From the NCBI GenBank assembly GCA_951406725.2, contig OX597814.1, positions 134,602,001-134,666,000 of the forward strand: a stretch of 64,000 nt of DNA, read 5' to 3'. The translations under genes and the position numbers were made by a program. Below, piece by piece: positions 1-33,689 of this stretch. Every line of letters begins with the position of its first letter. The first letter of the stretch is position 1. The DNA comes from Octopus vulgaris. Taxonomy: Eukaryota. The notes below the pieces were generated by a model, which was given only the letters and a program-made list of their open reading frames with translations, made no database searches and had not been told where the DNA came from.

Positions 1-1757
1 CCCATTTTTGCCTATTCATTTGTTATATACATAGTAAGAATGTTCGTTTTTATTTTCTTAACACCTTTTGCTTTATTTTCTTAACACATATATTTTAGTA
101 TAAATTTGTGATTGTAAATATATTGTACTTTACTGTTGCGTGCTAGTGTTTATTCATCTCTTTACTATTTGATTGCTAGTTAACTATATTATTACTTTAT
201 AAAATTGTGTTCCCTTTCAGCATTGTGAAATTATTACTAAGTTGTTTGTTGGTTATTTGTTGAGCACAGTTTTGTATGTATGTTTCTCTTGTTGTTTTTT
301 TTATTTGGTTTCCTTGTAGTGCAAAAAGCTTAAGCTAGCAAAGTACAGTAAGTAAGCAGTTTATTTATTTGATATAAAATGTCCTGTATTCTTTGCAACA
401 TGCTTTCTATATTTGACACAGAATCTGTAGGTCAAAGAAACAGATAGTTGGACTTGAAAAGACAGAAGGAATGAATTTCTGGCTGGTACAACAGCATTTT
501 TGCCTATTTATTATTGAGTTGTTTGTTGGTTATTTATTGAGCACAGTTTTGCCTGTGTCTTTTTGTTGTTTTTTCTGTTTCCTTTCCTTGCAGTCAAAAA
601 AAGCTTAAGCTAGCAAAGTACAGTAAGTAAGCAGTTTAGTTCTTTGATATAAAATGACCTGTATTGTTGTTTGGAACATGCTTTCGATATTTGACACACA
701 ATCTGTAGGTAAATGAAACAGGATGTTGGACTTGAAGAGACAGAAGAAATGAAATTTTGGTTGGTACGACCCCATTTTTGCCTATTCATTTGTTATATAC
801 ATAGTAAGAATGTTCGTTTTTATTTTCTTAACACCTTTTGCTTTATTTTCTTAACACATATATTTTAGTATAAATTTGTGATTGTAAATATATTGTACTT
901 TACTGTTGCGTGCTAGTGTTTATTCATCTCTTTACTATTTGATTGCTAGTTAACTATATTATTACTTTATAAAATTGTGTTCCCTTTCAGCATTGTGAAA
1001 TTATTACTAAGTTGTTTGTTGGTTATTTGTTGAGCACAGTTTTGTATGTATGTTTCTCTTGTTGTTTTTTATTTGGTTTCCTTGTAGTGCAAAAAGCTTA
1101 AGCTAGCAAAGTACAGTAAGTAAGCAGTTTATTTATTTGATATAAAATGTCCTGTATTCTTTGCAACATGCTTTCTATATTTGACACAGAATCTGTAGGT
1201 CAAAGAAACAGATAGTTGGACTTGAAAAGACAGAAGGAATGAATTTCTGGCTGGTACAACAGCATTTTTGCCTATTTATTATTGAGTTGTTTGTTGGTTA
1301 TTTATTGAGCACAGTTTTGCCTGTGTCTTTTTGTTGTTTTTCTGTTTGCTTTACTTGCAGTGAAAAAAAGCTTAAGCTAGCAACGTACAGTAAGTAAGCA
1401 GTTTAGTTCTTTGATATAAAATGACCTGTATTGTTGTTTGCAACATGCTTTCGATATTTGACACACAATCTGTAGGTAAAAGAAACAGAACGTTGAACTT
1501 GAAGAGACAGATGAAATGAAATTCTTGTTGGTACGACCGCATTTTTGCCTATTCATTTGTTATATACATAGGAAGAATGTTCGTCTTTGTTTTCTTAACA
1601 CCTTTTGCTTTATTTTCTTAACACATATATTTTAGTATCAATTTATGATTGTAAAGATATTGTACTTTACTGTTGTGTACTAGTGTTTACTAATCTCATT
1701 ACTATTTGATTGCTATTTAACTATATTATTACTTTATAAAATTGTGTTCCCTTTCAG

Positions 1758-1788
1758 CATTGTGAAATTATTATTGAGTTGTTTGTTG
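1758..1788 (+). other. Putative micro-exon A of the monomer (exemplar copy, 31 nt)
   Basis: tgttccctttcag|CATTGTGAAA...TGTTTGTTG|gtaata, with a TACTAAT branch-like motif ~70 nt upstream. The donor is weakened (gttatt) or lost in many other copies. Confidence 0.4.
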
Positions 1789-1855
1789 GTAATATGTTGA
1801 GCACAGTTTTGCTTCTGTGTTTCTGTTGTTGTTTTTCTGTTTGCTTTCCTTGCAG

Positions 1856-1884
1856 TGAAAAAAAGCTTAAGCTAGCAAAGTACA
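1856..1884 (+). other. Putative micro-exon B of the monomer (exemplar copy, 29 nt)
   Basis: ~40-nt T-rich tract ending ttccttgcag|TGAAAAAAAGCTTAAGCTAGCAAAGTACA|gtaagt. The acceptor is consensus and the GTAAGT donor is perfect; both are retained in essentially all copies. Confidence 0.6.
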
Positions 1885-1968
1885 GTAAGTAAGCAGTTTA
1901 GTTCTTTGATATGAAATGAACTGTATTGTTGTTTGCAACATGCTTTCGATATTTGACACAATCTGTAG

Positions 1969-2023
1969 GTAAAAGAAACAGAAAGTTGGACTTGAAGAGA
2001 CAGAAGAAATGAAATTCTTGTTG
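1969..2023 (+). other. Putative micro-exon C of the monomer (exemplar copy, 55 nt, purine-rich)
   Basis: tttgacacaatctgtag|GTAAAAGAAACAGAAAG...GAAGAGACAGAAGAAATGAAATTCTTGTTG|gtacga. A GAA-rich island in T-rich flanks; splice sites weaker than exon B. Confidence 0.4.
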
Positions 2024-5000
2024 GTACGACCGCATTTTTGCCTATTCATTTGTTATATACATAGGAAGAATGTTCGTCTTTGTTTTCTTAACACCTTTTG
2101 CTTTATTTTCTTAATACATATATTTTAGTATCAATTTATGATTGTAAAGATATTGTACTTTACTGTTGCGTACTAGTGTTTACTAATCTCATTACTATTT
2201 GATTGCTATTTAACTATAGTATTACTTTATAAAATTGTGTTCCCTTTCAGCATTGTGAAATTATTATTGAGTTGTTTGTTGGTAATATGTTGAGCACAGT
2301 TTTGCTTCTGTGTTTCTGTTGTTGTTTTTCTGTTTGCTTTCCTTGCAGTGAAAAAAGCTTAAGCTAGCAAAGTAAAGTAAGTAAGCAGTTTAGTTCTTTG
2401 ATATAAAATGACCTGTATTGTTGTTTGCAACATGCTTTCTATATTTGACACACCATCTGAAGGTAATAGAAACAGATAGTTGGAATTGAAAGGACAGAAG
2501 CAACAAAATTCTGGCTTGTACAACTGCATTTTTGCGTATTCATTTGCTATATACATAGTAAGAATGTTCGTCTTTATTTTCTTAAAACCTTTTGCTTTAT
2601 TTTCTTAACACATATATTTTAGTATCAATTTATGATCGTAAAATGTATGGTAAATGACTGTTGCGAGCTAGTCTTTATTCATCTCTTTACTATATTATTG
2701 CTAGTTAGCTATATTATTACTTTATAAAATTGTGTTCCCTTTCAGCATTGTGAAATTATTACTGAGTTGTTTGTTGGTTATTTGTTGAGCACAGTTTTGT
2801 ATGTATGTTTCTCTTGTTTTTTTTATTTGGTTTCCTTGCAGTGCAAAAAGCTTAAGCTAGCAATGTACAGTAAGTAAGCAGTTTAGTTATTTGATATAAA
2901 ATGTCCTGTATTGTTTGCAACATGCTTTCTACATTTGACACAGAATCTGTAGGTCAAAGAAACAGATAGTTGGACTTGAAAAGACAGAAGGAATGAATTT
3001 CTGGCTGGTACAACAGCATTTTTGCCTATTTATTATTGAGTTGTTTGTTGGTTATTTATTGAGCACAGTTTTGCCTGTGTCTTTTTGTTGTTTTTCTGTT
3101 TGCTTTCCTTGCAGTGAAAAAAAGCTTAAGCTAGCAACGTACAGTAAGTAAGCAGTTTAGTTCTTTGATATAAAATGACCTGTATTGTTGTTTGCAACAT
3201 GCTTTCTATATTTGAAACACCATCTGTAGGTAAAAGAAACAGACAGTTGGACTTGAAAGGACAGAAGCAACAAAATTCTGGCTTGTACAACTGCATTTTT
3301 GCGTATTCATTTGCTATATACATAGTAAGAATGTTCGTCTTTATTTTCTTAAAACCTTTTGCTTTATTTTCTTAACACATATATTTTAGTATCAATTTAT
3401 GATCGTAAAATGTATTGTAAATGACTGTTGCGTGCTAGTGTTTATTCATCTCTTTACTATTTGATTGCTACTTAACTATATTATTACTTTATAAAATTGT
3501 GTTCCCTTTCAGCATTGTGAAATTATTACTAAGTTGTTTGTTGGTTATTTGTTGAGCACAGTTTTGTATGTATGTTTCTCTTGTTGTTTTTTTTATTTGG
3601 TTTCCTTGCAGTGCAAAAAGCTTAAGCTAGCAAAGTACAGTAAGTAAGCAGTTTAGTTATTTGATATAAAATGTCCTGTACTGTTTGCAACATGCTTTCT
3701 ATATTTGACACAGAATCTGTAGGTCAAAGAAACAGATAGTTGGACTTGAAAAGACAGAAGGAATGAATTTCTGGCTGGTACAACAGCATTTTTGCCTATT
3801 TATTATTGAGTTGTTTGTTGGTTATTTATTGAGCACAGTTTTGCCTGTGTCTTTTTGTTGTTTTTCTGTTTGCTTTACTTGCAGTGAAAAAAAGCTTAAG
3901 CTAGCAACGTACAGTAAGTAAGCAGTTTAGTTCTTTGATATAAAATGACCTGTATTGTTGTTTGCAACATGCTTTCGATATTTGACACACAATCTGTAGG
4001 TAAAAGAAACAGAACGTTGAACTTGAAGAGACAGATGAAATGAAATTCTTGTTGGTACGACCGCATTTTTGCCTATTCATTTGTTATATACATAGGAAGA
4101 ATGTTCGTCTTTGTTTTCTTAACACCTTTTGCTTTATTTTCTTAACACATATATTTTAGTATCAATTTATGATTGTAAAGATATTGTACTTTACTGTTGT
4201 GTACTAGTGTTTACTAATCTCATTACTATTTGATTGCTATTTAACTATATTATTACTTTATAAAATTGTGTTCCCTTTCAGCATTGTGAAATTATTATTG
4301 AGTTGTTTGTTGGTAATATGTTGAGCACAGTTTTGCTTCTGTGTTTCTGTTGTTGTTTTTCTGTTTGCTTTCCTTGCAGTGAAAAAAAGCTTAAGCTAGC
4401 AAAGTACAGTAAGTAAGCAGTTTAGTTCTTTGATATGAAATGACCTGTATTGTTGTTTGCAACATGCTTTCGATATTTGACACAATCTGTAGGTAAAAGA
4501 AACAGAAAGTTGGACTTGAAGAGACAGAAGAAATGAAATTCTTGTTGGTACGACCGCATTTTTGCCTATTCATTTGTTATATACATAGGAAGAATGTTCG
4601 TCTTTGTTTTCTTAACACCTTTTGCTTTATTTTCTTAATACATATATTTTAGTATCAATTTATGATTGTAAAGATATTGTACTTTACTGTTGCGTACTAG
4701 TGTTTACTAATCTCATTACTATTTGATTGCTATTTAACTATAGTATTACTTTATAAAATTGTGTTCCCTTTCAGCATTGTGAAATTATTATTGAGTTGTT
4801 TGTTGGTAATATGTTGAGCACAGTTTTGCTTCTGTGTTTCTGTTGTTGTTTTTCTGTTTGCTTTCCTTGCAGTGAAAAAAAGCTTAAGCTAGCAAAGTAA
4901 AGTAAGTAAGCAGTTTAGTTCTTTGATATAAAATGACCTGTATTGTTGTTTGCAACATGCTTTCTATATTTGACACACCATCTGAAGGTAATAGAAACAG

Positions 5001-8000
5001 ATAGTTGGAATTGAAAGGACAGAAGCAACAAAATTCTGGCTTGTACAACTGCATTTTTGCGTATTCATTTGCTATATACATAGTAAGAATGTTCGTCTTT
5101 ATTTTCTTAAAACCTTTTGCTTTATTTTCTTAACACATATATTTTAGTATCAATTTATGATCGTAAAATGTATGGTAAATGACTGTTGCGAGCTAGTCTT
5201 TATTCATCTCTTTACTATATTATTGCTAGTTAGCTATATTATTACTTTATAAAATTGTGTTCCCTTTCAGCATTGTGAAATTATTACTGAGTTGTTTGTT
5301 GGTTATTTGTTGAGCACAGTTTTGTATGTATGTTTCTCTTGTTTTTTTTATTTGGTTTCCTTGCAGTGCAAAAAGCTTAAGCTAGCAATGTACAGTAAGT
5401 AAGCAGTTTAGTTATTTGATATAAAATGTCCTGTATTGTTTGCAACATGCTTTCTACATTTGACACAGAATCTGTAGGTCAAAGAAACAGATAGTTGGAC
5501 TTGAAAAGACAGAAGGAATGAATTTCTGGCTGGTACAACAGCATTTTTGCCTATTTATTATTGAGTTGTTTGTTGGTTATTTATTGAGCACAGTTTTGCC
5601 TGTGTCTTTTTGTTGTTTTTCTGTTTGCTTTCCTTGCAGTGAAAAAAAGCTTAAGCTAGCAACGTACAGTAAGTAAGCAGTTTAGTTCTTTGATATAAAA
5701 TGACCTGTATTGTTGTTTGCAACATGCTTTCTATATTTGAAACACCATCTGTAGGTAAAAGAAACAGACAGTTGGACTTGAAAGGACAGAAGCAACAAAA
5801 TTCTGGCTTGTACAACTGCATTTTTGCGTATTCATTTGCTATATACATAGTAAGAATGTTCGTCTTTATTTTCTTAAAACCTTTTGCTTTATTTTCTTAA
5901 CACATATATTTTAGTATCAATTTATGATCGTAAAATGTATTGTAAATGACTGTTGCGTGCTAGTGTTTATTCATCTCTTTACTATTTGATTGCTACTTAA
6001 CTATATTATTACTTTATAAAATTGTGTTCCCTTTCAGCATTGTGAAATTATTACTAAGTTGTTTGTTGGTTATTTGTTGAGCACAGTTTTGTATGTATGT
6101 TTCTCTTGTTGTTTTTTATTTGGTTTCCTTGCAGTGCAAAAAGCTTAAGCTAGCAAAGTACAGTAAGTAAGCAGTTTAGTTATTTGATATAAAATGTCCT
6201 GTACTGTTTGCAACATGCTTTCTATATTTGACACAGAATCTGTAGGTCAAAGAAACAGATAGTTGGACTTGAAAAGACAGAAGGAATGAATTTCTGGCTG
6301 GTACAACAGCATTTTTGCCTATTTATTATTGAGTTGTTTGTTGGTTATTTATTGAGCACAGTTTTGCCTGTGTCTTTTTGTTGTTTTTCTGTTTGCTTTA
6401 CTTGCAGTGAAAAAAAGCTTAAGCTAGCAACGTACAGTAAGTAAGCAGTTTAGTTCTTTGATATAAAATGACCTGTATTGTTGTTTGCAACATGCTTTCG
6501 ATATTTGACACACAATCTGTAGGTAAAAGAAACAGAACGTTGAACTTGAAGAGACAGATGAAATGAAATTCTTGTTGGTACGACCGCATTTTTGCCTATT
6601 CATTTGTTATATACATAGGAAGAATGTTCGTCTTTGTTTTCTTAACACCTTTTGCTTTATTTTCTTAACACATATATTTTAGTATCAATTTATGATTGTA
6701 AAGATATTGTACTTTACTGTTGTGTACTAGTGTTTACTAATCTCATTACTATTTGATTGCTATTTAACTATATTATTACTTTATAAAATTGTGTTCCCTT
6801 TCAGCATTGTGAAATTATTATTGAGTTGTTTGTTGGTAATATGTTGAGCACAGTTTTGCTTCTGTGTTTCTGTTGTTGTTTTTCTGTTTGCTTTCCTTGC
6901 AGTGAAAAAAAGCTTAAGCTAGCAAAGTACAGTAAGTAAGCAGTTTAGTTCTTTGATATGAAATGACCTGTATTGTTGTTTGCAACATGCTTTCGATATT
7001 TGACACAATCTGTAGGTAAAAGAAACAGAAAGTTGGACTTGAAGAGACAGAAGAAATGAAATTCTTGTTGGTACGACCGCATTTTTGCCTATTCATTTGT
7101 TATATACATAGGAAGAATGTTCGTCTTTGTTTTCTTAACACCTTTTGCTTTATTTTCTTAATACATATATTTTAGTATCAATTTATGATTGTAAAGATAT
7201 TGTACTTTACTGTTGCGTACTAGTGTTTACTAATCTCATTACTATTTGATTGCTATTTAACTATAGTATTACTTTATAAAATTGTGTTCCCTTTCAGCAT
7301 TGTGAAATTATTATTGAGTTGTTTGTTGGTAATATGTTGAGCACAGTTTTGCTTCTGTGTTTCTGTTGTTGTTTTTCTGTTTGCTTTCCTTGCAGTGAAA
7401 AAAAGCTTAAGCTAGCAAAGTAAAGTAAGTAAGCAGTTTAGTTCTTTGATATAAAATGACCTGTATTGTTGTTTGCAACATGCTTTCTATATTTGACACA
7501 CCATCTGAAGGTAATAGAAACAGATAGTTGGAATTGAAAGGACAGAAGCAACAAAATTCTGGCTTGTACAACTGCATTTTTGCGTATTCATTTGCTATAT
7601 ACATAGTAAGAATGTTCGTCTTTATTTTCTTAAAACCTTTTGCTTTATTTTCTTAACACATATATTTTAGTATCAATTTATGATCGTAAAATGTATGGTA
7701 AATGACTGTTGCGAGCTAGTCTTTATTCATCTCTTTACTATATTATTGCTAGTTAGCTATATTATTACTTTATAAAATTGTGTTCCCTTTCAGCATTGTG
7801 AAATTATTACTGAGTTGTTTGTTGGTTATTTGTTGAGCACAGTTTTGTATGTATGTTTCTCTTGTTTTTTTTATTTGGTTTCCTTGCAGTGCAAAAAGCT
7901 TAAGCTAGCAATGTACAGTAAGTAAGCAGTTTAGTTATTTGATATAAAATGTCCTGTATTGTTTGCAACATGCTTTCTACATTTGACACAGAATCTGTAG

Positions 8001-11000
8001 GTCAAAGAAACAGATAGTTGGACTTGAAAAGACAGAAGGAATGAATTTCTGGCTGGTACAACAGCATTTTTGCCTATTTATTATTGAGTTGTTTGTTGGT
8101 TATTTATTGAGCACAGTTTTGCCTGTGTCTTTTTGTTGTTTTTCTGTTTGCTTTCCTTGCAGTGAAAAAAGCTTAAGCTAGCAACGTACAGTAAGTAAGC
8201 AGTTTAGTTCTTTGATATAAAATGACCTGTATTGTTGTTTGCAACATGCTTTCTATATTTGAAACACCATCTGTAGGTAAAAGAAACAGACAGTTGGACT
8301 TGAAAGGACAGAAGCAACAAAATTCTGGCTTGTACAACTGCATTTTTGCGTATTCATTTGCTATATACATAGTAAGAATGTTCGTCTTTATTTTCTTAAA
8401 ACCTTTTGCTTTATTTTCTTAACACATATATTTTAGTATCAATTTATGATCGTAAAATGTATTGTAAATGACTGTTGCGTGCTAGTGTTTATTCATCTCT
8501 TTACTATTTGATTGCTACTTAACTATATTATTACTTTATAAAATTGTGTTCCCTTTCAGCATTGTGAAATTATTACTAAGTTGTTTGTTGGTTATTTGTT
8601 GAGCACAGTTTTGTATGTATGTTTCTCTTGTTGTTTTTTTTATTTGGTTTCCTTGCAGTGCAAAAAGCTTAAGCTAGCAAAGTACAGTAAGTAAGCAGTT
8701 TAGTTATTTGATATAAAATGTCCTGTACTGTTTGCAACATGCTTTCTATATTTGACACAGAATCTGTAGGTCAAAGAAACAGATAGTTGGACTTGAAAAG
8801 ACAGAAGGAATGAATTTCTGGCTGGTACAACAGCATTTTTGCCTATTTATTATTGAGTTGTTTGTTGGTTATTTATTGAGCACAGTTTTGCCTGTGTCTT
8901 TTTGTTGTTTTTCTGTTTGCTTTACTTGCAGTGAAAAAAAGCTTAAGCTAGCAACGTACAGTAAGTAAGCAGTTTAGTTCTTTGATATAAAATGACCTGT
9001 ATTGTTGTTTGCAACATGCTTTCGATATTTGACACACAATCTGTAGGTAAAAGAAACAGAACGTTGAACTTGAAGAGACAGATGAAATGAAATTCTTGTT
9101 GGTACGACCGCATTTTTGCCTATTCATTTGTTATATACATAGGAAGAATGTTCGTCTTTGTTTTCTTAACACCTTTTGCTTTATTTTCTTAACACATATA
9201 TTTTAGTATCAATTTATGATTGTAAAGATATTGTACTTTACTGTTGTGTACTAGTGTTTACTAATCTCATTACTATTTGATTGCTATTTAACTATATTAT
9301 TACTTTATAAAATTGTGTTCCCTTTCAGCATTGTGAAATTATTATTGAGTTGTTTGTTGGTAATATGTTGAGCACAGTTTTGCTTCTGTGTTTCTGTTGT
9401 TGTTTTTCTGTTTGCTTTCCTTGCAGTGAAAAAAAGCTTTAAGCTAGCAAAGTACAGTAAGTAAGCAGTTTAGTTCTTTGATATGAAATGACCTGTATTG
9501 TTGTTTGCAACATGCTTTCGATATTTGACACAATCTGTAGGTAAAAGAAACAGAAAGTTGGACTTGAAGAGACAGAAGAAATGAAATTCTTGTTGGTACG
9601 ACCGCATTTTTGCCTATTCATTTGTTATATACATAGGAAGAATGTTCGTCTTTGTTTTCTTAACACCTTTTGCTTTATTTTCTTAATACATATATTTTAG
9701 TATCAATTTATGATTGTAAAGATATTGTACTTTACTGTTGCGTACTAGTGTTTACTAATCTCATTACTATTTGATTGCTATTTAACTATAGTATTACTTT
9801 ATAAAATTGTGTTCCCTTTCAGCATTGTGAAATTATTATTGAGTTGTTTGTTGGTAATATGTTGAGCACAGTTTTGCTTCTGTGTTTCTGTTGTTGTTTT
9901 TCTGTTTGCTTTCCTTGCAGTGAAAAAAGCTTAAGCTAGCAAAGTAAAGTAAGTAAGCAGTTTAGTTCTTTGATATAAAATGACCTGTATTGTTGTTTGC
10001 AACATGCTTTCTATATTTGACACACCATCTGAAGGTAATAGAAACAGATAGTTGGAATTGAAAGGACAGAAGCAACAAAATTCTGGCTTGTACAACTGCA
10101 TTTTTGCGTATTCATTTGCTATATACATAGTAAGAATGTTCGTCTTTATTTTCTTAAAACCTTTTGCTTTATTTTCTTAACACATATATTTTAGTATCAA
10201 TTTATGATCGTAAAATGTATGGTAAATGACTGTTGCGAGCTAGTCTTTATTCATCTCTTTACTATATTATTGCTAGTTAGCTATATTATTACTTTATAAA
10301 ATTGTGTTCCCTTTCAGCATTGTGAAATTATTACTGAGTTGTTTGTTGGTTATTTGTTGAGCACAGTTTTGTATGTATGTTTCTCTTGTTTTTTTTATTT
10401 GGTTTCCTTGCAGTGCAAAAAGCTTAAGCTAGCAATGTACAGTAAGTAAGCAGTTTAGTTATTTGATATAAAATGTCCTGTATTGTTTGCAACATGCTTT
10501 CTACATTTGACACAGAATCTGTAGGTCAAAGAAACAGATAGTTGGACTTGAAAAGACAGAAGGAATGAATTTCTGGCTGGTACAACAGCATTTTTGCCTA
10601 TTTATTATTGAGTTGTTTGTTGGTTATTTATTGAGCACAGTTTTGCCTGTGTCTTTTTGTTGTTTTTCTGTTTGCTTTCCTTGCAGTGAAAAAAAGCTTA
10701 AGCTAGCAACGTACAGTAAGTAAGCAGTTTAGTTCTTTGATATAAAATGACCTGTATTGTTGTTTGCAACATGCTTTCTATATTTGAAACACCATCTGTA
10801 GGTAAAAGAAACAGACAGTTGGACTTGAAAGGACAGAAGCAACAAAATTCTGGCTTGTACAACTGCATTTTTGCGTATTCATTTGCTATATACATAGTAA
10901 GAATGTTCGTCTTTATTTTCTTAAAACCTTTTGCTTTATTTTCTTAACACATATATTTTAGTATCAATTTATGATCGTAAAATGTATTGTAAATGACTGT

Positions 11001-14000
11001 TGCGTGCTAGTGTTTATTCATCTCTTTACTATTTGATTGCTACTTAACTATATTATTACTTTATAAAATTGTGTTCCCTTTCAGCATTGTGAAATTATTA
11101 CTAAGTTGTTTGTTGGTTATTTGTTGAGCACAGTTTTGTATGTATGTTTCTCTTGTTGTTTTTTTTATTTGGTTTCCTTGCAGTGCAAAAAGCTTAAGCT
11201 AGCAAAGTACAGTAAGTAAGCAGTTTAGTTATTTGATATAAAATGTCCTGTACTGTTTGCAACATGCTTTCTATATTTGACACAGAATCTGTAGGTCAAA
11301 GAAACAGATAGTTGGACTTGAAAAGACAGAAGGAATGAATTTCTGGCTGGTACAACAGCATTTTTGCCTATTTATTATTGAGTTGTTTGTTGGTTATTTA
11401 TTGAGCACAGTTTTGCCTGTGTCTTTTTGTTGTTTTTCTGTTTGCTTTACTTGCAGTGAAAAAAAGCTTAAGCTAGCAACGTACAGTAAGTAAGCAGTTT
11501 AGTTCTTTGATATAAAATGACCTGTATTGTTGTTTGCAACATGCTTTCGATATTTGACACACAATCTGTAGGTAAAAGAAACAGAACGTTGAACTTGAAG
11601 AGACAGATGAAATGAAATTCTTGTTGGTACGACCGCATTTTTGCCTATTCATTTGTTATATACATAGGAAGAATGTTCGTCTTTGTTTTCTTAACACCTT
11701 TTGCTTTATTTTCTTAACACATATATTTTAGTATCAATTTATGATTGTAAAGATATTGTACTTTACTGTTGTGTACTAGTGTTTACTAATCTCATTACTA
11801 TTTGATTGCTATTTAACTATATTATTACTTTATAAAATTGTGTTCCCTTTCAGCATTGTGAAATTATTATTGAGTTGTTTGTTGGTAATATGTTGAGCAC
11901 AGTTTTGCTTCTGTGTTTCTGTTGTTGTTTTTCTGTTTGCTTTCCTTGCAGTGAAAAAAAGCTTAAGCTAGCAAAGTACAGTAAGTAAGCAGTTTAGTTC
12001 TTTGATATGAAATGACCTGTATTGTTGTTTGCAACATGCTTTCGATATTTGACACAATCTGTAGGTAAAAGAAACAGAAAGTTGGACTTGAAGAGACAGA
12101 AGAAATGAAATTCTTGTTGGTACGACCGCATTTTTGCCTATTCATTTGTTATATACATAGGAAGAATGTTCGTCTTTGTTTTCTTAACACCTTTTGCTTT
12201 ATTTTCTTAATACATATATTTTAGTATCAATTTATGATTGTAAAGATATTGTACTTTACTGTTGCGTACTAGTGTTTACTAATCTCATTACTATTTGATT
12301 GCTATTTAACTATAGTATTACTTTATAAAATTGTGTTCCCTTTCAGCATTGTGAAATTATTATTGAGTTGTTTGTTGGTAATATGTTGAGCACAGTTTTG
12401 CTTCTGTGTTTCTGTTGTTGTTTTTCTGTTTGCTTTCCTTGCAGTGAAAAAAAGCTTAAGCTAGCAAAGTACAGTAAGTAAGCAGTTTAGTTCTTTGATA
12501 TAAAATGACCTGTATTGTTGTTTGCAACATGCTTTCGATATTTGACACACCATCTGTAGGTAAAAGTATCAGAAAGTCGGACTTGAAGACACAGCAGAAA
12601 TGAAATTCTGGTTGGTACGACCGCATTTTTGCCTATTCATTTGTTATATGCATAGGAAGAATGTTTGTCTTTGTTTTCTTAACACCTTTCGCTTTATTTT
12701 CTTTACATATATTTTAGTATAAATATATGATTGTAAAATATTGTACTTTACTGTTGTGTACTAGTGTTTACTAATCTCATTACTATTTGATTGCTATTTA
12801 ACTATATTATTACTTTATATAACTCTGTTCCCTTTCAGCATTGTGAAATTATTATTGAGTTGTTTGTTCCTTATTTGTTGAGCATAGTTTTGTTTGTGTG
12901 TTTCTGTTGTTGTTTTTCAATTTGGTTTCCTTGCAGTGAAAAAAAGCTTAAGCTAGCAAAGTACTGTAACTAAACAGTTTAGTTCTTTGATATAAAATGA
13001 CCTGTATTGTTGTTTGCAACATGCTTTCTATATTTGACACACCATCTATAGGTAAAAGAAACAGATAGTTGGACTTGAAAGGACAGAACCAATAAAATTC
13101 TGGCTTGTACAACCGCATTTTTGCCTTTTCATTTGCTATATACATGGCAAGAATGTTCGTCTTAATTTTCTTATAACCTTTGGCTTTATTTTCTTAACAC
13201 ATATATTTTAGTATCAATTTATGATCGTAAAATTTATTCTAAATGACTGTTGCGTGCTAGTGTTTACTCATCTCATTATTATTTGATTGGTAGTTAACTA
13301 TGTTATTACCTTAAAAATTTGTGTTCCCTTTCACCATTGTGAAATTATTATTGAGTTGTTTGTTGGTTATTTATTCAGCACAGTTTTACCTGTGTCTTTT
13401 TGTTGTTGTTTTTCTGTTTGCTTTCCTTGCAGTGAAAAAAAGCTGAAGCTAGCAAATTACAGTAAGTAAGCAGTTTAGTTCCTTGATATAAAATGACCTG
13501 TATTGTTGTTTGGAACATGCTTTCGATATTTGACACACAATCTGTAAGTAAATGAAACAGAAAGTTGGACTTGAAGAGACAGAAGAAATGAAATTTTGGT
13601 ATGACCCCATTTTTGCCTATTCATTTGTTATATACATAGTAAGAATGTTCGTTTTTATTTTCTTAACACATATATTTTAGTATAAATTTGTGATTGTAAA
13701 TATATTGTACTTTACTGTTGCGTGCTAGTGTTTACTCATCTCTTTACTATTTCATTGCTAGTTGACTATATTATTACTTTATATAACTCTGTTCCTTTTC
13801 AGCATTGTGAAATTATTATTGAGTTGTTTGTTGGTAATATGTTGAGCACAGTTTTGCTTCTGTGTTTCTGTTGTTGTTTTTCTGTTTGCCTTCCTTGCAG
13901 TGAAAAAACGCGTAAGCTAGCAAAGTATAGTAAGTAAGCAGTTTACTTCTTTGATATTAAATGACCTGAATTGTTGTTTGCAACATGTTTTCGATATTTG

Positions 14001-17000: not shown

Positions 17001-20000
17001 TGACACACAATCTGTAGGTAAAAGAAACAGAAAGTTGGACTTGAAGAGACAGAAGAAATGAAATTCTTGTTGGTACGACCGCATTTTTGCCTATTCATTT
17101 GTTATATACATAGGAAGAATGTTCGTCTTTGTTTTCTTAACACCTTTTGCTTTATTTTCTTAACACATATATTTTAGTATCAACTTATGATTGTAAAGAT
17201 ATTGTACTTTACTGTTGCGTACTAGTGTTTACTAATCTCATTACTATTTGATTGCTATTTAACTATATTATTACTTTATAAAATTGTGTTCCCTTTCAGC
17301 ATTGTGAAATTATTATTGAGTTGTTTGTTGGTAATATGTTGAGCACAGTTTTGCTTCTGTGTTTCTGTTGTTGTTTTTCTGTTTGCTTTCCTTGCAGTGA
17401 AAAAAAGCTTAAGCTAGCAAAGTACAGTAAGTAAGCAGTTTAGTTCTTTGATATAAAATGACCTGTATTGTTGTTTGCAACATGCTTTCGATATTTGACA
17501 CACCATCTGTAGGTAAAAGAAACAGAAAGTCGGACTTGAAGACACAGCAGAAATGAAATTCTGGTTGGTACGGCCGCATTTTTGCCTATTCATTTGTTAT
17601 ATGCATAGGAAGAATGTTTGTCTTTGTTTTCTTAACACCTTTCGCTTTATTTTCTTTACATATATTTTAGTATAAATTTATGATTGTAAAATATTGTACT
17701 TTACTGTTGTGTACTAGTGTTTACTAATCTCATTACTATTTGATTGCTATTTAACTATATTATTACTTTATATAACTCTGTTCCCTTTCAGCATTGTGAA
17801 ATTATTATTGAGTTGTTTGTTCCTTATTTGTTGAGCACAGTTTTGTTTGTGTGTTTCTGTTGTTGTTTTTCAATTTGGTTTCCTTGCAGTGAAAAAAAGC
17901 TTACGCTAGCAAAGTACTGTAAGTAAACACTTTAGTTCTTTGATATAAAATGACCTGTATTGTTGTTTGCAACATGCTTTCTATATTTAACACACCATCT
18001 GTAGGTAAAAGAAACAGATAGTTGGACTTGAAAGGACAGAAGCAATAAAATTCTGGCTTGTACAACCGCATTTTTGCCTATTCATTTGCTATATACATAG
18101 CAAGAATGTTCGTCTTAATTTTCTTAAAACCTTTGGCTTTATTTTCTTAACTCATATATTTTAGTATCAATTTATGATCGTAAAATTTATTCTAAATGAC
18201 TGTTGCGTGCTAGTGTTTACACATCTCATTATTATTTGATTGGTAGTTAACTATGTTATTACCTTATAAACTTGTGTTCCCTTTCACCATTGTGAAATTA
18301 TTATTGAGTTGTTTGTTGGTTATTTATTCAGCACAGTTTTACCTGTGTCTTTTTGTTGTTGTTTTTCTGTTTGCTCTCCTTGCAGTGAAAAAAAGCTGAA
18401 GCTAGCAAATTACAGTAAGTAAGCAGTTTAGTTCCTTGATATAAAATGACCTGTATTGTTGTTTGCAACATGCTTTCGATATTTGACACACAATCTGTAG
18501 GTAAAAGAAACAGAAAGTTGGACTTGAAGAGACAGAAGAATTGAAATTCTTGTTGGTACGACCGCATTTTTGGCTATTCATTTGTTATATACATAGGAAG
18601 AACATTCGTCTTTGTTTTCTTAACACCTTTCGCTTTATTTTCTTAACTCATATATTTTAGTATCAATTTATGATAGTAAAGATATCATACTTTACTGTTG
18701 TGTACTAGTGTTTACTAATCTCATTACTATTTGATTGCTATTTAACTATATTATTACTTTATATAACTCTGTTCCCTTTCAGCATTGTGAAATTATTATT
18801 GAGTTGTTTGTTCCTTATTTGTTGAGCACAGTTTTGTTTGTGTGTTTCTGTTGTTGTTTTTCAATTTGGTTTCCTTGCAGTGAAAAAAAGCTTAAGCTAG
18901 CAAAGTACTGTAAGTAAACAGTTTAGTTCTTTGACATAAAATGACCTGTATTGTTGTTTGCAACATGCTTTCTATATTTGACACACCATCTGTAGGTAAA
19001 AGAAACAGATAGTTTGACTTGAAAGGACAGAAGCAATAAAATTCTGGCTTGTACAACCGCATTTTTGCCTATTCATTTGCTATATACATAGTAAGAATGT
19101 TTGTCTTTATTTTCTTAACACATATATTTTAGTATCAATTTGTGATTGTAAAGATATTGTACTTTACTGTTGCGTGCTTGTGTTTACTCATCTCTTTACT
19201 ATTTCATTGCTAGTTGACTGTATTATTACTTTATAAAATTGTGTTCCCTTTCAGCATTGTGGAATTATTATTGAGTTGTTTGTTGGTAATATGTTGAGCA
19301 CAGTTTTGCTTCTGTGTTTCTGTTGTTGTTTTTCTGTTTGCATTCCTTGCAGTGAAAAAAAGCGTAGGCTAGCAAAGTACAGTAAGTAAGCAGTTTACTT
19401 CTTTGATATTAAATGACCTGAATTGTTGTTTGCAACATGTTTTCGATATTTGACACCCAATCTGTAGGTAAAAAAAACAGAAAGTTGGACTTGAAGAGAC
19501 AGAAGTGAAATTCTGGTTGGTACGACCGCATTTTTGCCTATTCATTTGTTATATACATAGTAAGAATGTTCGTCTTTATTTTCTTAACACCTTTTGCTTT
19601 ATTTTCTTAACACATATATTTCAGTATCAATTTATGATTGTAAAAATAATTGTACTTTACTGTTGTGTACTAGTGTTTACTCATATCATTACTAGTTGGA
19701 CTTGAAAAGACAGAAGGAATGAATTTCTGGCTGGTACAACAGCATTTTTGCCTATTTATTATTGAGTTGTTTGTTGGTTATTTATTGAGCACAGTTTTGC
19801 CTGTGTCTTTTTGTTGTTTTTTCTGTTTCCTTTCCTTGCAGTCAAAAAAAGCTTAAGCTAGCAAAGTACAGTAAGTAAGCAGTTTAGTTCTTTGATATAA
19901 AATGACCTGTATTGTTGTTTGCAACATGCTTTCAATATTTGACACAGAATCTGTAGGTAAAAGAAACAGAAAGTTGGACTTGAAGAGACAGAAGAAATGA

Positions 20001-23000
20001 AATTCTTGTTGGTACGACCGCATTTTTGGCTATTCATTTGTTATATACATAGGAAGAACATTCGTCTTTGTTTTCTTAACACCTTTCGCTTTATTTTTTA
20101 ACTCATATATTTTAGTATCAATTTATGATAGTAAAGATATCGTACTTTACTGTTGTGTACTAGTGTTTACTAATCTCATTACTATTTGATTGCTATTTAA
20201 CTATATTATTACTTTATATAACTCTGTTCCTTTTCAGCATTGTGAAATTATTATTGAGTTGTTTGTTGGTTATTTATTGAGCACAGTTTTGCCTGTGTCT
20301 TTTTGTTTTTGTTTTTTCTGTTTCCTTTCCTTGCAGTCAAAAAAAGCTTAAGCTAGCAAAGTACAGTAAGTAAGCAGTTTAGTTCTTTGATATAAAATGA
20401 CCTGTATTGTTGTTTGGAACATGCTTTCGATATTTGACACACAATCTGTAGGTAAATGAAACAGGATGTTGGACTTGAAGAGACAGAAGAAATGAAATTT
20501 TGGTTGGTACGACCCCATTTTTGCCTATTCATTTGTTATATACATAGTAAGAATGTTCGTTTTTATTTTCTTAACACATATATTTTAGTATCAATTTGTG
20601 ATTGTAAAGATATTGTACTTTACTGTTGCGTGCTAGTGTTTACTCATCTCTTTACTATTTCATTGCTAGTTGACTATATTATTACTTTATAAAATTGTGT
20701 TCCCTTTCAGCATTGTGGAATTATTATTGAGTTGTTTGTTGGTAATATGTTGAGCACAGTTTTGCTTCTGTGTTTCTGTTGTTGATTTTCTGTTTGCTTT
20801 CCTTGCAGTGAAAAAAAGCTTAAGCTAGCAAAGTACAGTAAGTAAGCAGTTTAGTTCTTTGATATAAAATGACCTGTATTGTTGTTTGCAACATGCTTTC
20901 TATATTTGACACACAATCTGTAGGTTAAAGAAACAGAGAGTTGGACTTGAAGAGACAGAAGAAATGAAATTCTTGTTGGTACGACCGCATTTTTGGCTAT
21001 TCATTTGTTATATACATAGGAAGAACATTCGTCTTTGTTTTCTTAACACCTTTCGCTTTATTTTCTTAACACATATATTTTAGTATCAATTTATGATTGT
21101 AAAGATATTGTACTTTACTATTGTGTACTAGTGTTTACTAATCTCATTGCTATTTAACTATATTATTACTTTATATAACTCTGTTCCTTTTCAGCATTGT
21201 GAAATTATTATTGAGTTGTTTGTTGGTTATTTATTGAGCACAGTTTTGCCTGTGTCTTTTTGTTGTTGTTTTTTCTGTTTCCTTTCCTTGCAGTCAAAAA
21301 AAAGCTTAAGCTAGCAAACTACAGTAAGTAAGCAGTTTAGTTCTTTGATATAAAATGACCTGTATTGTTGTGTGCAACATGCTTTCTATATTTGAAACAC
21401 CATCTGTAGGTAAAAGAAACAGATAGTTGGACTTGAAAGGACAGAAGCAACAAAATTCTGGCTTGTACAACCGCATTTTTACCTATTCATTTGCTATATA
21501 CATAGTAAGAATGTTCGTCTTTATTTTCTTAAAACCTTTTGCTTTATTTTCTTAACACATATATTTTAGTATCAATTTATGATCGTAAAATGTATTGTAA
21601 ATGACTGTTGCGTGCTAGTGTTTATTCATCTCTTTACTATTTGATTGCTAGTTAACTATATTATTACTTTATAAAATTGCATTCCCTTTCAGCATAGTGA
21701 AATTATTATTGAGTTGTTTGTTGGTTATTTGTTGAGCACAGTTTTGTAAGTATGTTTCTGTTGTTGTTTTTTTTATTTGGTTTCCTTGCAGTGCAAAAAG
21801 CTTAAGCTAGCAAAGTACAGTAAGTAAGCAGTTTATTATTTGATATAAAATGTCCTCTATTGTTTGCAACATGCTTTTTATATTTGACACAGAATCTGTA
21901 GGTCAAAGAAACAGATAGTTGGACTTGAAAAGACAGAAGGAATGAAATTCTGGCTGGTACAACAGCATTTTTGCCTATTTATTATTGAGTTGTTTGTTGG
22001 TTATTTATTGAGCACTGTTTTGCCTGTGTCTTTTTGTTGTTTTTCTGTTTGCTTTCCTTGCAGTGAAAAAAAGCTTAAGCTAGCAACGTACAGTAAGTAA
22101 GCAGTTTAGTTCTTTGATATAAAATGACCTGCATTGTTTTTTGCAACATGCTTTCGATATTTGACACACAATCTGTGAAAGTTGGACTTGAAGAGACAGA
22201 AGAAATGAAATTCTTCTTGGTACGACCGCATTTTTGCCTATTCATTTGTTATATACATAGGAAGAATGTTCGTCTTTGTTTTCTTAACACCTTTTGCTTT
22301 ATTTTCTTAGCACATATATTTTAGTATCAATTTATGATTGTAAAGATATTGTACTTTACTGTTGTGTACTAGTGTTTACTAATCTCATTACTATTTGATT
22401 GCTATTTAACTATATTATTACTTTATATAACTCTGTTCCCTTTCAGCATTGTGAAATTATTATTGAGTTGTTTGTTCCTTATTTGTTGAGCACAGTTTTG
22501 TTTGTGTGTTTCTGTTGTTGTTTTTCAATTTGGTTTCCTTGCAGTGAAAAAAGCTTAAGCTAGCAAAGTACTGTAAGTAAGCAGTTTAGTTCTTTGATAT
22601 AAAATGACCTGTATTGTTGTTTGCAACATGCTTTCTATATTTGACACACCATCTGTAGGTAAAAGAAACAGATAGTTTGACTTGAAAGGTCAGAAGCAAT
22701 AAAATTCTGGCTTGTACAACTGCATTTTTGCCTATTCATTTGCTATATACATAGCAAGAATGTTCGTCTTAATTTTCTTAAAACCTTTGGCTCTATTTTC
22801 TTAACTCATATATTTTAGTATCAATTTATGATCGTAAAATTTATTCTAAATGACTGTTGCGTGCTAGTGTTTACTCATCTCATTATTATTTGATTGGTAG
22901 TTAACTATGTTATTACCTTATAAAATTGGGTTCCCTTTCACCATTGTGAAATTATTATTGAGTTGTTTGTTGGTTATTTATTCAGCACAGTTTTACCTGT

Positions 23001-26000
23001 GTCTTTTTGTTGTTGTTTTTCTGTTTGCTTTCCTTGCAGTGAAAAAAAGCTGAAGCTAGCAAAGTACAGTAAGTAAGCAGTTTAGTTCCTTGATATAAAA
23101 TGACCTGTATTGTTGTTTGCAACATGTTTTCGATATTTGACACCCAATCTGTAGGTAAAAAAAATAGAAAGTTGGACTTGAAGAGACAGAAGTGAAATTC
23201 TGGTTGGTACGACCGCATTTTTGCCTATTCATTTGTTATATACATAGTAAGAATGTTCGTCTTTATTTTCTTAACACCTTTTGCTTTATTTTCTTAACAC
23301 ATATATTTCAGTATCAACTTATGATTGTAAAAATAATTGTACTTTACTGTTGTGTACTAGTGTTTACTCATATCATTACTATTTGATTGCTAGGTGACTA
23401 TATTATTACTTTATAAAATTGTGTTCTCTTTCAGCATTGTGAAATTATTATTGGGTTGTTTGTTGGTAATATGTTGAGCACAGTTTTGCTTCTGTGTTTC
23501 TGTTGTTGTTTTTCTGTTTGCTTTCCTTGCAGTGAAAAAAAGCTTAAGCTAGCAAAGTACAGTAAGTAAGCAGTTTAGTTCTTTGATATAAAATGACCTG
23601 TATTGTTGTTTGCAACATGCTTTCGATATTTGACACACAATCTGTAGGTAAATGAAACAGAAAGTTGGACTTGAAGAGACAGAAGAAATGAAATTCTTGT
23701 TGGTACGACCGCATTTTTGGCTATCCATTTGTTATATACATAGGAAGAACGTTCGTCTTTGTTTTCTTAACACCTTTCGCTTTATTTTCTTAACACATAT
23801 ATTTTAGTATCAATTTATGATTGTAAAGATATTGTACTTTACTGTTGTGTACTAGTGTTTACTAATCTCAATACTATTTGATTGCTATTTAACTATATTA
23901 TTACTTTATATAACTCTGTTCCTTTTCAGCATTGTGAAATTATTATTGAGTTGTTTGTTGGTTATTTATTGAGCACAGTTTTGCCTGTGTCTTTTTGTTG
24001 TTTTTTCTGTTTCCTTTCCTTGCAGTCAAAAAAAGCTTAAGCTAGCAAAGTACAGTAAGTAAGCAGTTTAGTTCTTTGATATAAAATGACCTGTATTGTT
24101 GTTTGCAACATGCTTTCTATATTTGACACACCATCTGTAGGTAAAAGAAACAGATAGTTGGAATTGAAAGGACAGAAGCAACAAAATTCTGGCTTGTACA
24201 ACCGCATTTTTGCCTATTCATTTGCTATATACATAGTAAGAATGTTTGTCTTTATTTTCTTAACACCTTTTGCTTTATTTTCTTAACACATATATTTTAG
24301 TATCAATTTATGATCGTAAAATGTATTGTGAATGACTGTTGCGTGCTAGTGTTTATTCATCTCTTTACTATTTGATTGCTAGTTAACTTTATTATTACTT
24401 TATAAAATTGTGTTCCCTTTCAGCATTGTGAAATTATTATTGTGTTGTTTGTTGGTTATTTGTTGAGCACAGTTTTGTATGTATGTTTCTCTTGTTGTTT
24501 TTTTTATTTGGTTTCCTTGCAGTGCCAAAAGCTTAAGCTAGCAAGGTACAGTAAGTAAGCAGTTTAGTTATTTGATATAAAATGTCCTGTATTGTTTGCA
24601 ACATGCTTTCTATATTTGACACAGAATCTGTAGGTCAAAGAAACAGATAGTTGGACTTGAAAAGACAGAAGGAATGAAATTCTGGCTGGTACAACAGCAT
24701 TTTTGCCTATTTTTAATTGAGTTGTTTGTTGGTTATTTATTGAGCACAGTTTTGCCTGTGTCTTTTTGTTGTTTTTCTGTTTGCTTTCCTTGCAGTGAAA
24801 AAAAGCTTAAGCTAGCAAAGTACAGTAAGTAAGCAGTTTAGTTCTTTGATATAAAATGACCTGTATTGTTGTTTGCAACATGCTTTCGATATTTGACACA
24901 CAATCTGTAGGTAAAAGAAACAGAAAGTTGGACTTGAAGAGACAGAAGAAATGAAATTCTTGTTGGTACGACCGCATTTTTGGCTATTCATTTGTTATAT
25001 ACATATGAAGAACGTTCGTCTTTGTTTTCTTAACACCTTTCGCTTTATTTTCTTAACACATATATTTTAGTATCAATTTATGATTGTAAAGATATTGTAC
25101 TTTACTGTTGTGTACTAGTGTTTACTAATCTCATTACTATTTGATTGCTATTTAACTATATTATTACTTTATATAACTCTGTTCCCTTTCAGCATTGTGA
25201 AATTATTATTGAGTTGTTTGTTCCTTATTTGTTGAGCACAGTTTTGTTTGTGTGTTTCTGTTGTTGTTTTTCAATTTGGTTTCCTTGCAGTGAAAAAAAG
25301 CTTAAGCTAGCAAAGTACTGTAAGTAAACAGTTTAGTTCTTTGATATAAAATGACCTGTATTGTTGTTTGCAACATGCTTTCTATATTTGACACACCATC
25401 TGTAGGTAAAAGAAACAGATAGTTGGACTTGAAAGGACAGAAGCAACAAAATTCTGGCTTGTACAACCGCATTTTTACCTATTCATTTGCTATATACATA
25501 GTAAGAATGTTCGTCTTTATTTTCTTAAAACCTTTTGCTTTATTTTCTTAACACATATATTTTAGTATCAATTTATGATCGTAAAAAGTATTGTAATTTA
25601 CTGTTGCGTACTAGTGTTTACTCATCTCATTACTATTTGATTGCTAGTTAACTATATTGTTACTTTATAAAATTGTGTTCCCTTTCAGCATTGTGAAATT
25701 ATTATTGAGTTGTTTGTTGGTTATTTGTTGAGCACAGTTTTGTTTGTGTGTTTATGTAGTTGTTTTTCTGTGTGCTTTCCTTGCAGTGAAAAAAGCTTAA
25801 GCTAGCAAAGTACAGTAAGTCTGCAGTTTAGTTCTTTGATGTAAGATGACCTGCATTGTTGTTTGGAACATGCTTTCTATATTTGACACACAATCTGTAG
25901 GTTAAAGAAACAGAGAGTTGGACTTGAAGAGACAGAAGCTGGTAGGACCGCATTTTTGCATATTCACTAATGTTCAAAGCCACTTTAATATATAGTGATA

Positions 26001-27351: not shown

Positions 27352-27830
27352 CATTTTCTTAACACATATTTTAGTATCAATTTATGATCGAAAAAAGTAT
27401 TGTAATTTTCTGTTGTGTACTAAGGTTTACTTATCTCATTACTATTTGATTTCTTGTTAGCTATGTTATTACTTTATAAAATTGTGTTCCCTTTCAGCAT
27501 TGTGAAATTATTATTGAGTTGTTTGTTGGTAATTTGTTGAGCACAGTTTTGTTTGTGTGTTTCTGTTGTTGTTCTTCTGTTCGCTTTCCTTGCAGTGAAA
27601 AAAGCTAAAGCTAGTAAAGTACAGTAAGTAAGCAGTTTAGTTTTTTGATGGAAGATGACCTGTATTTTTGTTTGCAACATGCTTTCTATATTTGACACAC
27701 AATCTGTAGGTAAAAGAAATTGATTGTTGAACTTGAAGAGACAGAAGCAATAAAATTCTGGCTTGTACGACTGCATTTTTGCCTATTCATTTGATATGAA
27801 CATAGAAAGAATGTTCCCCTTTATTTTCTT
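27352..27830. repeat. Orphan diverged satellite monomer
   Basis: Same sequence as the array monomer (ccctttcagcattgtgaaatt..., ttccttgcagtgaaaaaagct...gtacagtaagt, aatctgtaggtaaaag) embedded between unique modules. Confidence 0.93.
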
Positions 27831-28290
27831 TGGCAGATGTGATGACATGAAGAGGACTGGATAAGACAACAGCACTAAGATAAGCCTTATTACTTCAATT
27901 CTGTTTAGTGGTTTTTCTGTAGATATTTGGAGGAAGATTATGCTAAATGTAATGTTTAAATTTGATTATTTGGTAAGCATGGAAAATGCTGGAGATAAGT
28001 AATTGCATAGAGAGTTGATGATATTTTGTGTTGGTTGCAAACTTATCTCTTCGTAGGTTTTGGAATTATTGAAAAATGCTCTGTAAGTGCTTACAGTTAC
28101 CTACCGTATTACTGTAATATTAAATTTTAAAAGATTGATTGGATAAATTTAGTGCCGAACCGTTTGTTTTTTTATGCATGTTATCTTTGACAGATGCAAA
28201 AGCCCTTCAGGAAAAGTAGGACTTCAAATAAGATAAGAGAAAGGTTTGTTTGTAGTTTATATCACTTTGTGTTTCATCTGTGTGTTTTAA

Positions 28291-33557: not shown

Positions 33558-33689
33558 CCTCCTTTTTTTCCTTTCCTGAGCGTCCAATAACACTATACTT
33601 GTTCAACATCCTCGCGTTGTTGTGTTTTCTCTTTGAGTTAACTATATAAGTAACTTGCACGGACTCCGGAAATACATCTGCCATCACCA

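Follow-up and report, generated by a model that had tools for sequence, protein, structure and literature searches.

A single-locus tandem array of exon- and intron-like blocks that may lie within a long, mostly unspliced nuclear RNA

The 64,000-nucleotide stretch of DNA analyzed here (the window; negative positions lie upstream of its start) opens inside a tandem array of exon- and intron-like blocks, for which we see about an even chance that it lies within one plus-strand non-coding transcript of ~53 kb, likely mostly unspliced and likely retained in the nucleus. The repeated splice signals would be more likely to retain the RNA in the nucleus than to build a 200-exon transcript. In the preliminary description, the array had been taken for a repeat-built RNA spliced from more than 100 exons; its non-coding nature, single locus and exon/intron-like descent are supported, as probably is its transcription, whereas the splicing of more than 100 exons is not. 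The accompanying view that the array is not an inert satellite is probably right and is supported indirectly.

Architecture and origin of the array

The blocks of 31, 29 and 55 nt described between GT..AG segments of 67, 84 and 227 nt were confirmed, the exemplar coordinates being exact to the base. The extent first assigned to the array is correct within the window, whereas its true start lies at about -8340, 8.3 kb further upstream. The whole array thus spans ~34 kb with ~77 units; 59 B anchors lie in 1–25960 and 77 overall, including one orphan at 27.6 kb.

1..25960 in the window, plus strand: tandem array of ~493–495-nt (A-B-C) and ~275–279-nt (B-C) monomers
1370..11990, plus strand: young six-monomer higher-order repeat with a period of about 2525 nt and 0–0.4% difference between copies
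1758..1788, plus strand: exon-like block A, 31 nt; weak donor and a good acceptor, which short monomers have lost by deletion
1856..1884, plus strand: exon-like block B, 28–30 nt; T-rich tract and TTGCAG on the 5' side, GTAAGT on the 3' side
1969..2023, plus strand: exon-like block C, 55 nt; GAA/purine-rich, donor moderate to weak

In the 58 aligned window monomers (two of the 76 anchor-to-anchor pieces were unusable, one being double-length and the last lacking an end), the signals of block B are near-invariant, as had been claimed: GTAAGT is present in 57, TTGCAG in 56, and the acceptor AG and donor GT in all 58, with a second overlapping GTAAG 4 nt downstream of GTAAGT. The T-rich tract before B (66% T across the final 44 nt) and the GAA-richness of block C (six of the monomer's nine GAA; 73% purine) were likewise reproduced. 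Block C keeps its acceptor AG in 56/58 and its donor GT in 58/58, the donor being weak in about half of the copies (GTACAA in 31/58), and block A keeps a donor GT in 53/58, again weak (GTTATT in 36, GTAATA in 16), and an acceptor AG in 41/58, with 14 deleted and three changed to AC. The short form of 275–279 nt without the A acceptor accounts for 16 of the 75 measured monomers. Block B is 28, 29 or 30 nt long in 24, 45 and 4 of 73 parsed copies and is therefore not frame-locked. Because the monomers, with a mean pairwise divergence of 8%, are not independent, all these copy counts amount to one observation.

The array is restricted to one locus and one strand: a 25-nt monomer word has 33 exact matches across the 2.8-Gb genome, every one of them at the array locus and on the plus strand, and a metagenome scan with this word gave 0 matches. 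This single 34-kb locus argues against the suggested link to centromere function and against a centromeric satellite, which would form large arrays on many chromosomes, collapsed arrays elsewhere in the assembly being possible. The array arose by deletion from an older ~2-kb unit that carries additional exon-like blocks; the shortened unit was then amplified by unequal crossing-over. Copies of this parent unit follow the array:

25690..27830, plus strand: older ~2-kb parent-unit copy; A-B-C plus further exon-like blocks, including a 75-nt block at 26582–26656
27827..28289, plus strand: duplicate of 26801–27261, 96% identical
28287..29377, minus strand: DNA-transposon remnant of 1.1 kb, inserted in a parent-unit copy; terminal inverted repeats 16 nt long, enclosed by TTAA
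29390..30778, plus strand: two more partial parent-unit copies, 74–86% identical, carrying the 75-nt block

The first of these copies terminates in the orphan monomer (27329–27830), and a further paralog lies 9.7–7.9 kb upstream of the window. In the partial copies, the 75-nt block is found at 29423–29497 and, in a 56-nt form, at 30567–30622. The transposon remnant, presumably piggyBac-like, gave no Pfam match, and contigs of presumed-RNA runs enter both of its ends. The array also contains an internal duplication of 22.3 kb; its 2.5-kb higher-order repeat reflects either recent unequal crossing-over or, in part, an assembly effect.

Contigs of presumed-RNA runs and splicing

Public runs were sorted by their total contig letters, the transcriptome-sized ones being RNA by guess and none on record as RNA. 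Of the 20 runs containing locus words, 18 have 43–115 million contig letters and come from seven studies (P1–P5, P7 and P8) with three organism labels; since these totals are far below what a 2.8-Gb genome would need at the observed depths, the runs were guessed to be RNA. Four listed runs, of which three belong to organism D and the fourth to organism A, contain next to no locus words, which is not proof of absence. The 18 transcriptome-sized runs contain fractions of 0.42–0.62 of the words of 24400–32600, against 0.52–0.54 in the two genome-sized runs, although wholly exonic 31-mers make up only 983/8171 (12%) of this region under a deliberately generous exon call. Such equal shares would be impossible for exon-only RNA, and a spliced-only product is thus not supported.

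Contigs were mapped over 1.9 kb in three of the 18 small runs and in one genome-sized run; of the 450 contig pieces, 32 were examined, along with some of the loose ends.

25390..27320, no strand assigned: contig-mapped stretch; 30/30 bins covered in 4/4 runs, no GT..AG joint

The mapped small runs have contig totals of 75–99 million letters and a contig depth of about 48–100 on near-single-copy sequence. Contigs cross predicted exon–intron borders, for example in run X10 (25390–25681, 25724–25888 and 25881–26591) and in run X5 (26723–27125). None of the seven joints in the three presumed-RNA runs is GT..AG, nor was any such joint seen around the 75-nt block, which is long enough to anchor one. 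Six of the seven have genomic look-alikes among the paralogs, and the remaining one (25519–25776, run X1 only, ends TT..GC) is probably a deletion allele. These contigs thus show no exon–exon junction, and with introns crossed by contigs and too high a word share for exon-only RNA, the RNA of more than 100 spliced exons in the preliminary description is not supported. Contigs reveal neither the strand and level of a transcript nor where it starts or ends, and they lose rare forms; chains of 29–31-nt exons are near the joining limit of the contig alignment (shortest side 27); as contigs prove presence and never absence, a minor spliced isoform is possible. Contig depth in the array exceeds that of the flank by about 2–18-fold in the small runs and about 15–100-fold in the genome-sized run, with no enrichment in exon bins, and was left unused as evidence because it cannot rank parts of a gene. 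Counts of A>G versus T>C (24/17, 22/16 and 19/20 in the small runs, 15/13 in the DNA-sized run) gave no signal of RNA editing.

The proposed comparison of splice-site conservation with neighboring bases yielded at most a weak effect. Within the array, conservation of the six splice dinucleotides exceeds that of the remaining AG/GT only marginally (P 0.057). In the old paralogs, hand-picked sites are kept in 27/30 cells versus 260/398 for the background (P 0.001), these sites having been chosen after the paralogs were inspected, and top-scoring sites in 17/19 and 13/14 (P 0.02 and 0.07), with no such trend on the minus strand (6/10, 5/7); objective score thresholds of 0 and 1.5 gave no effect on the paralogs (P 0.19–0.61). 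The weight matrix, built on approximate frequencies, gave the B donor a score of no more than 2.5 bits and failed to distinguish a single monomer from shuffles. The better-kept strong sites in the old paralogs fit real splicing, present or past.

The predicted transcript and its alternatives

The claim that the array is non-coding was upheld. A profile search of 1.84 billion representatives and word searches found no protein relatives (0 matches each), Pfam gave 0 matches on 76 short frames, and the longest stop-free run in in-silico spliced arrays (seven exon combinations) is 35–89 aa over 2–8 kb. Among 150 of the 159 long flank frames, Pfam matched only transposon, C2H2 zinc-finger and RING domains and weak hits, those within 20 kb of the array being mobile-element pieces only. 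A snoRNA host gene was ruled against by Rfam (0 matches in 23000–34000 and none in the upstream array part; H/ACA snoRNAs are covered through Rfam only) and by a scan for C/D rRNA guides of at least 10 nt against the genome's own 18S/5.8S/28S, which found none in the monomer and chance-level matches in the flanks (11 on plus versus 14 on minus). A miRNA cluster or mirtron array was ruled against by folding: the monomer has z of -0.64 and -0.12, its best 90-nt hairpin (-20.5 kcal/mol) is no stable miRNA-type hairpin, and the intron-like pieces (z -2.1 to +0.6) lack end-to-end mirtron pairing.

The promoter-like CpG step and the strand skew reach beyond the array. CpG observed/expected is 0.72–1.20 in seven consecutive kb, from -23 to -16 kb, and mostly 0.04–0.5 from -16 kb through 33 kb, the transposon remnant excepted; since 18% of the 1-kb segments across the 262 kb examined are CpG-rich, the promoter assignment is tentative. 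The plus strand carries an excess of T and G from about -11 kb to about 32 kb. Within the array, GTRAGT occurs at 2.24 per kb on plus and 0 on minus (about 0.5 outside). AATAAA is found eight times on plus and 182 times on minus. These biases are largely due to composition and the copying of one unit. The plus strand, already taken as the sense strand, is the likelier one.

31326..32500, plus strand: candidate 3' end region; T/G skew fading at about 32 kb, AATAAA at 31362, 31463 and 31594, exact 101-nt tandem duplication at 31326–31528

In the predicted mechanism, transcription would start in the CpG-rich stretch 23–16 kb upstream of the window and end near 31.5–32.5 kb. Blocks of only 29–55 nt, with weak donors in A and C, may be too poorly defined for splicing, and the repeated U1 sites, together with the scarcity of AATAAA on plus, would favor polymerase read-through and tethering of the RNA, with a putative nuclear hold exerted by the U-rich tracts and the ~77 copies of the U1-type site. 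Proteins of the U1/U2AF/PTB/TIA/ELAV type might assemble on the RNA as on a multivalent scaffold. A further speculation, which we regard as quite unlikely, is that octopus-type cephalopods produce this ~53-kb RNA abundantly as an architectural RNA of the nucleus. Its ~77-fold amplified cassette, left unspliced, would then bind U1 snRNP, U2AF, SR and U-rich-binding proteins as a polyvalent decoy or scaffold, and array copy number would tune splicing-factor availability. If the locus encodes such an RNA, FISH, pull-down and knock-down would have a single-copy target whose repeat units can be counted, and the locus would be a clean case of a satellite derived from an exon–intron cassette; the open-access literature, supplements excluded, yielded no MALAT1/NEAT1/hsr-omega-type abundant architectural lncRNA in cephalopods.

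Against the mostly unspliced transcript stands, as a rather unlikely alternative, a truly spliced lncRNA of up to ~210 micro-exons, whose slowly spliced, intron-retaining precursor would account for the contigs, the spliced form being scarce or short-lived in the manner of snoRNA-host-type transcripts. The exact exon/intron anatomy, with introns of 67–227 nt, and the kept paralog sites speak for it, whereas the joints, the word shares, the null results at objective thresholds and the choice of sites after the fact speak against it; were it correct, few known lncRNAs would match this one in exon number. It is also conceivable, although unlikely, that the locus is the remnant of a gene that once encoded a repetitive protein in symmetrical 75-nt exons and has lost its frame while its promoter still fires, the array being neutrally amplified and the RNA a functionless by-product. 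Consistent with this are the 75-nt block, stop-free in one frame across three full-length paralogs and the 56-nt form, the turnover resembling that of a neutral satellite, the tolerated transposon insertion and the weak site conservation; the missing protein relatives, the short stop-free runs and the presence of locus words in runs of seven studies with at least two organism labels are harder to reconcile with it. A transcribed pseudogene would chiefly exemplify gene pieces turning into a satellite.

A one-strand small-RNA precursor, either piRNA-cluster-like or a host of unknown snoRNAs, miRNAs or mirtrons, appears very improbable: the length, U-richness (42% T), apparent lack of splicing and single strand would suit it, as would the repeated exon–intron units characteristic of SNHG14- and C19MC-type hosts, whereas the Rfam, guide, folding and mirtron-pairing results are all negative and the locus is transposon-poor, leaving this part of the original proposal without support. 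Most improbable of all is an inert satellite whose splice-like words arose by chance in T-rich DNA and which the small runs carry as DNA. The RNA status of those runs is a guess from size, one monomer scores no better than shuffles, and the turnover is satellite-like; however, this reading sits poorly with continuous cover at such depth on near-single-copy sequence in such small runs, with locus words in seven studies, and with a CpG step and skew that continue outside the array.

Comparison with known systems

Xist, Rsx, roX, hsr-omega and NEAT1_2 are long, tandem-repeat-rich, non-coding RNAs, and the mostly unspliced transcript predicted here would share these features and a plausible role as a protein scaffold, whereas the array locus has no Rfam match, including to ENE or mascRNA. 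SNHG14 (SNORD115/116) and C19MC consist of units of a short non-coding exon plus intron in dozens of tandem copies at one locus, a layout resembled by the array's exon-like and intron-like units; the array's units, however, measure 0.3–0.5 kb, no snoRNA or miRNA was found in their intron-like parts, and no splicing was seen. Octopus Zmast and Zfest, compared here by description, are sex-specific long non-coding transcripts, probably from the same animal group, located on Z (chr16), whereas the array lies on the 225.7-Mb contig C1 (bioRxiv 10.1101/2024.12.09.627507), hence on a chromosome of another rank if the genome is indeed that of an octopus-type cephalopod, as its size, its 2.64-kb 18S gene and its repeat content suggest. 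The word 'repeat' appears once in that paper.

In FIRRE/Firre, compared by layout only and with no homology claimed, the RRD repeat overlaps 7/13 human and 11/23 mouse exons (PMC4820808). As in the array, the repeats are confined to one locus and overlap exon(-like) blocks, and repeat-based nuclear retention of FIRRE provides the principle proposed here; FIRRE, however, is demonstrably spliced with dispersed repeats, whereas the array comprises ~77 head-to-tail units including intron-like parts, with no joint seen (PMC4820808). U1 motifs keep unspliced RNA on chromatin in mammalian cells (bioRxiv 10.1101/310433), and Malat1 and intron-retaining NXF1 resemble the predicted transcript in bearing many U1-type sites in RNA that is unspliced there. 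The mammalian 7-nt motif includes an exonic G, whereas the B site of the array lacks it, the U1 core motif with this G (GGTRAG) being absent from the array (bioRxiv 10.1101/310433). In further contrast to Malat1 and NXF1, the array owes its U1-type sites to an exon cassette that was amplified in tandem.

Anatomy and descent of the array

The exemplar blocks A, B and C (1758–1788, 1856–1884 and 1969–2023; 31, 29 and 55 nt) and the 67-, 84- and 227-nt GT..AG segments have exactly the coordinates and lengths of the preliminary description, and the near-universal signals that it ascribed to block B are borne out among the 58 aligned window monomers (AG and GT 58/58, TTGCAG 56/58, GTAAGT 57/58), with B itself varying from 28 to 30 nt. 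In the same monomers, block C keeps its AG in 56 and its GT in 58, and block A its GT in 53 and its AG in 41 (14 deleted, 3 mutated); donor context is weak in A (GTTATT, GTAATA) and in about half of the C copies (GTACAA).

The array starts ~8.3 kb upstream of the window and comprises 77 B anchors, one an orphan at 27.6 kb (bare kb positions are window coordinates, negative ones upstream). Long (~493–495 nt) and short (~275–279 nt; 16/75) monomers alternate, with a mean pairwise divergence of 8%, a higher-order repeat of six monomers (2525 nt) in near-identical copies, and an internal duplication of 22.3 kb. In the 2.8-Gb genome (227 contigs; the array's contig, C1, 225.7 Mb), a 25-nt word from the monomer has 33 exact matches, every one at this locus on the + strand, and BLAST-type searches, whose counts are lower bounds, returned local paralogs only. 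The monomer is an older ~2-kb parent unit shortened by deletion; the parent unit has further exon-like blocks, one of 75 nt.

-9.7 to -7.9 kb and 25.7–27.8 kb: parent unit, full copies
27.8–28.3, 29.4–30.0 and 30.15–30.8 kb: parent unit, partial copies
28287–29377: 1.1-kb element flanked by TTAA and bearing terminal inverted repeats of 16 nt, interrupting one parent-unit copy

This element, which we take to be piggyBac-like, carries a 131-aa acidic/serine-rich frame on the - strand and had no Pfam match. At 31326–31528 lies an exact 101-nt tandem duplication with AATAAA in each copy, the motif recurring in diverged form at 32413–32445.

Proposed transcription unit and surroundings

CpG observed/expected is 0.72–1.20 over 7 kb (-23 to -16 kb) and under about 0.5 most of the way from there to 33 kb, and T and G are in excess on the + strand from about -11 to 32 kb. 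We infer from this profile and skew a promoter, a methylated body and ~53 kb of + strand transcription, a reading weakened by the CpG-rich state (observed/expected reaching 0.7) of 18% of the 262 kb examined, counted kb by kb. AATAAA occurs 8 times on + versus 182 on -, and GTRAGT at 2.24 per kb in the array versus about 0.5 outside.

A near-perfect 100-nt hairpin (L002:2036–2138; about -43 kcal/mol on -, -34 on +) lies inside this upstream CpG-rich stretch, ~18 kb before the window; it gave only sub-threshold miRNA matches in Rfam and could be either a candidate miRNA gene or a mobile-type small element made of inverted repeats. An unrelated tandem array of ~15 kb, CpG-rich and with strong C-over-G skew, starts directly after a 100-N assembly gap and extends from L006:9416–10000 across L005 into L004, at some 50.6–36 kb before the window. 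On the 3' side, 36142–47905 is dense in decayed LINE endonuclease/RT and mariner-like pieces, as judged by eye from frames. The nearest recognisable genes, with 150 of 159 frames searched, are C2H2 zinc-finger frames 91–97 kb upstream and a weak RING match 99 kb from the window start (L numbers denote flanking stretches with their own coordinates).

L010:3075–4370 and L010:8255–9358, + strand: two single-frame multi-finger C2H2 zinc-finger genes, 91–97 kb upstream
L014:5101–5388, + strand: start of RING-finger frame, in a CpG-rich stretch 99–102 kb from the window start
L004:4669–7952, L014:316–2529 and L003:80–886: LINE-type reverse transcriptase frames, PHD finger adjoining the RT domain; two are long open frames of 807 and 738 aa

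Nature of the putative RNA

The cassette had been described as having stops in every frame, and seven combinations spliced in silico indeed leave stop-free runs of only 35–89 aa. One frame of the 75-nt block is open across its paralogs; its profile found 0 matches among 1.84 billion representatives, and neither word searches nor a Pfam scan of 76 short frames gave a match. The proposal of a small-RNA precursor drew no support from Rfam (no match in array or 3' flank), from a C/D guide scan against the genome's own rRNA (chance-level matches, 0 in the monomer) or from monomer folding (no better than shuffles), and we hold it very improbable; as far as testable, the locus appears to be neither coding nor a small-RNA host. 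The 18S (2.64 kb) and 28S (4.9 kb) rRNA genes on L021, a stretch of contig C20, far exceed the Rfam model lengths, and further 18S copies lie on C1, C5 and C28.

The interval 24400–32600 is present in 20 of 24 listed public runs, none of them recorded as RNA. The 18 small runs (43–115 million contig letters each; 7 studies, organism labels A and B) contain 0.42–0.62 of its words versus 0.52–0.54 in two genome-sized runs, shares that exon-only RNA cannot explain because just 12% of its 31-mers are wholly exonic, even under a generous exon call. Contigs were placed on 25390–27320 from three small runs (three studies) and one genome-sized run; all four cover 30/30 bins, with contigs of 167–726 nt spanning predicted exon-intron borders.

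Of the hugely multi-exonic spliced RNA proposed earlier, the splice-like anatomy stands, but actual splicing finds no support: 0/7 contig joints in this interval are GT..AG, in contigs that are RNA by guess, give neither strand nor level and lose rare forms, the view covering 32 of 450 pieces and exons of 29–31 nt being near the joining limit of contig placement. Six of the seven joint rows have a paralogous arrangement in the genome and one has none; the four proposed junction words are, as predicted, without match in the 264 kb of genomic DNA examined. Splice dinucleotides were expected to outlast their neighbours, and within the array the trend is in that direction at P 0.057 (six dinucleotides intact in 96.5%, versus 88% of other AG and 86% of other GT). 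In older paralogs, hand-picked sites, chosen with the paralogs already known, are kept in 27/30 cells versus 260/398 (P 0.001); top-class sites chosen by score alone are kept in 17/19 (P 0.02) and in 13/14 (P 0.07), with no excess at two lower score thresholds (P 0.19–0.61) or on the - strand. These figures hint weakly at splicing of the parent unit, past or present; a truly spliced array RNA with dominant precursor seems rather unlikely, a transcribed pseudogene without function unlikely, and an inert satellite scarcely credible.

The likeliest reading, to which we give about an even chance, is a spliced-type ancestral unit amplified inside a non-coding gene, whose RNA would now be largely unspliced read-through, aided by scarce + strand AATAAA and dense donor-like sites, and kept nuclear by U1 and by proteins that bind U-rich tracts.

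Relation to known loci

Listed titles and abstracts on lncRNA, tandem repeats, snoRNA hosts and dosage compensation in octopus or cephalopods and on satellite lncRNAs in molluscs describe no such locus, nor do passages of PMC13282606, PMC9712504, PMC9115989, PMC9699675 and 10.1101/2024.12.09.627507, the last of which has Zmast and Zfest as Z-linked, Z being chr16; annotations or supplementary files may well carry the array locus under an anonymous lncRNA entry. We file it with the repeat-built lncRNAs as a putative, unproven member. The retention principle has been shown for mammalian lncRNAs (10.1101/310433) and repeat-based retention for Firre (PMC4820808). For the array both would apply by analogy, and its donor-like sites differ from the strongest U1 motif in having no exonic G.
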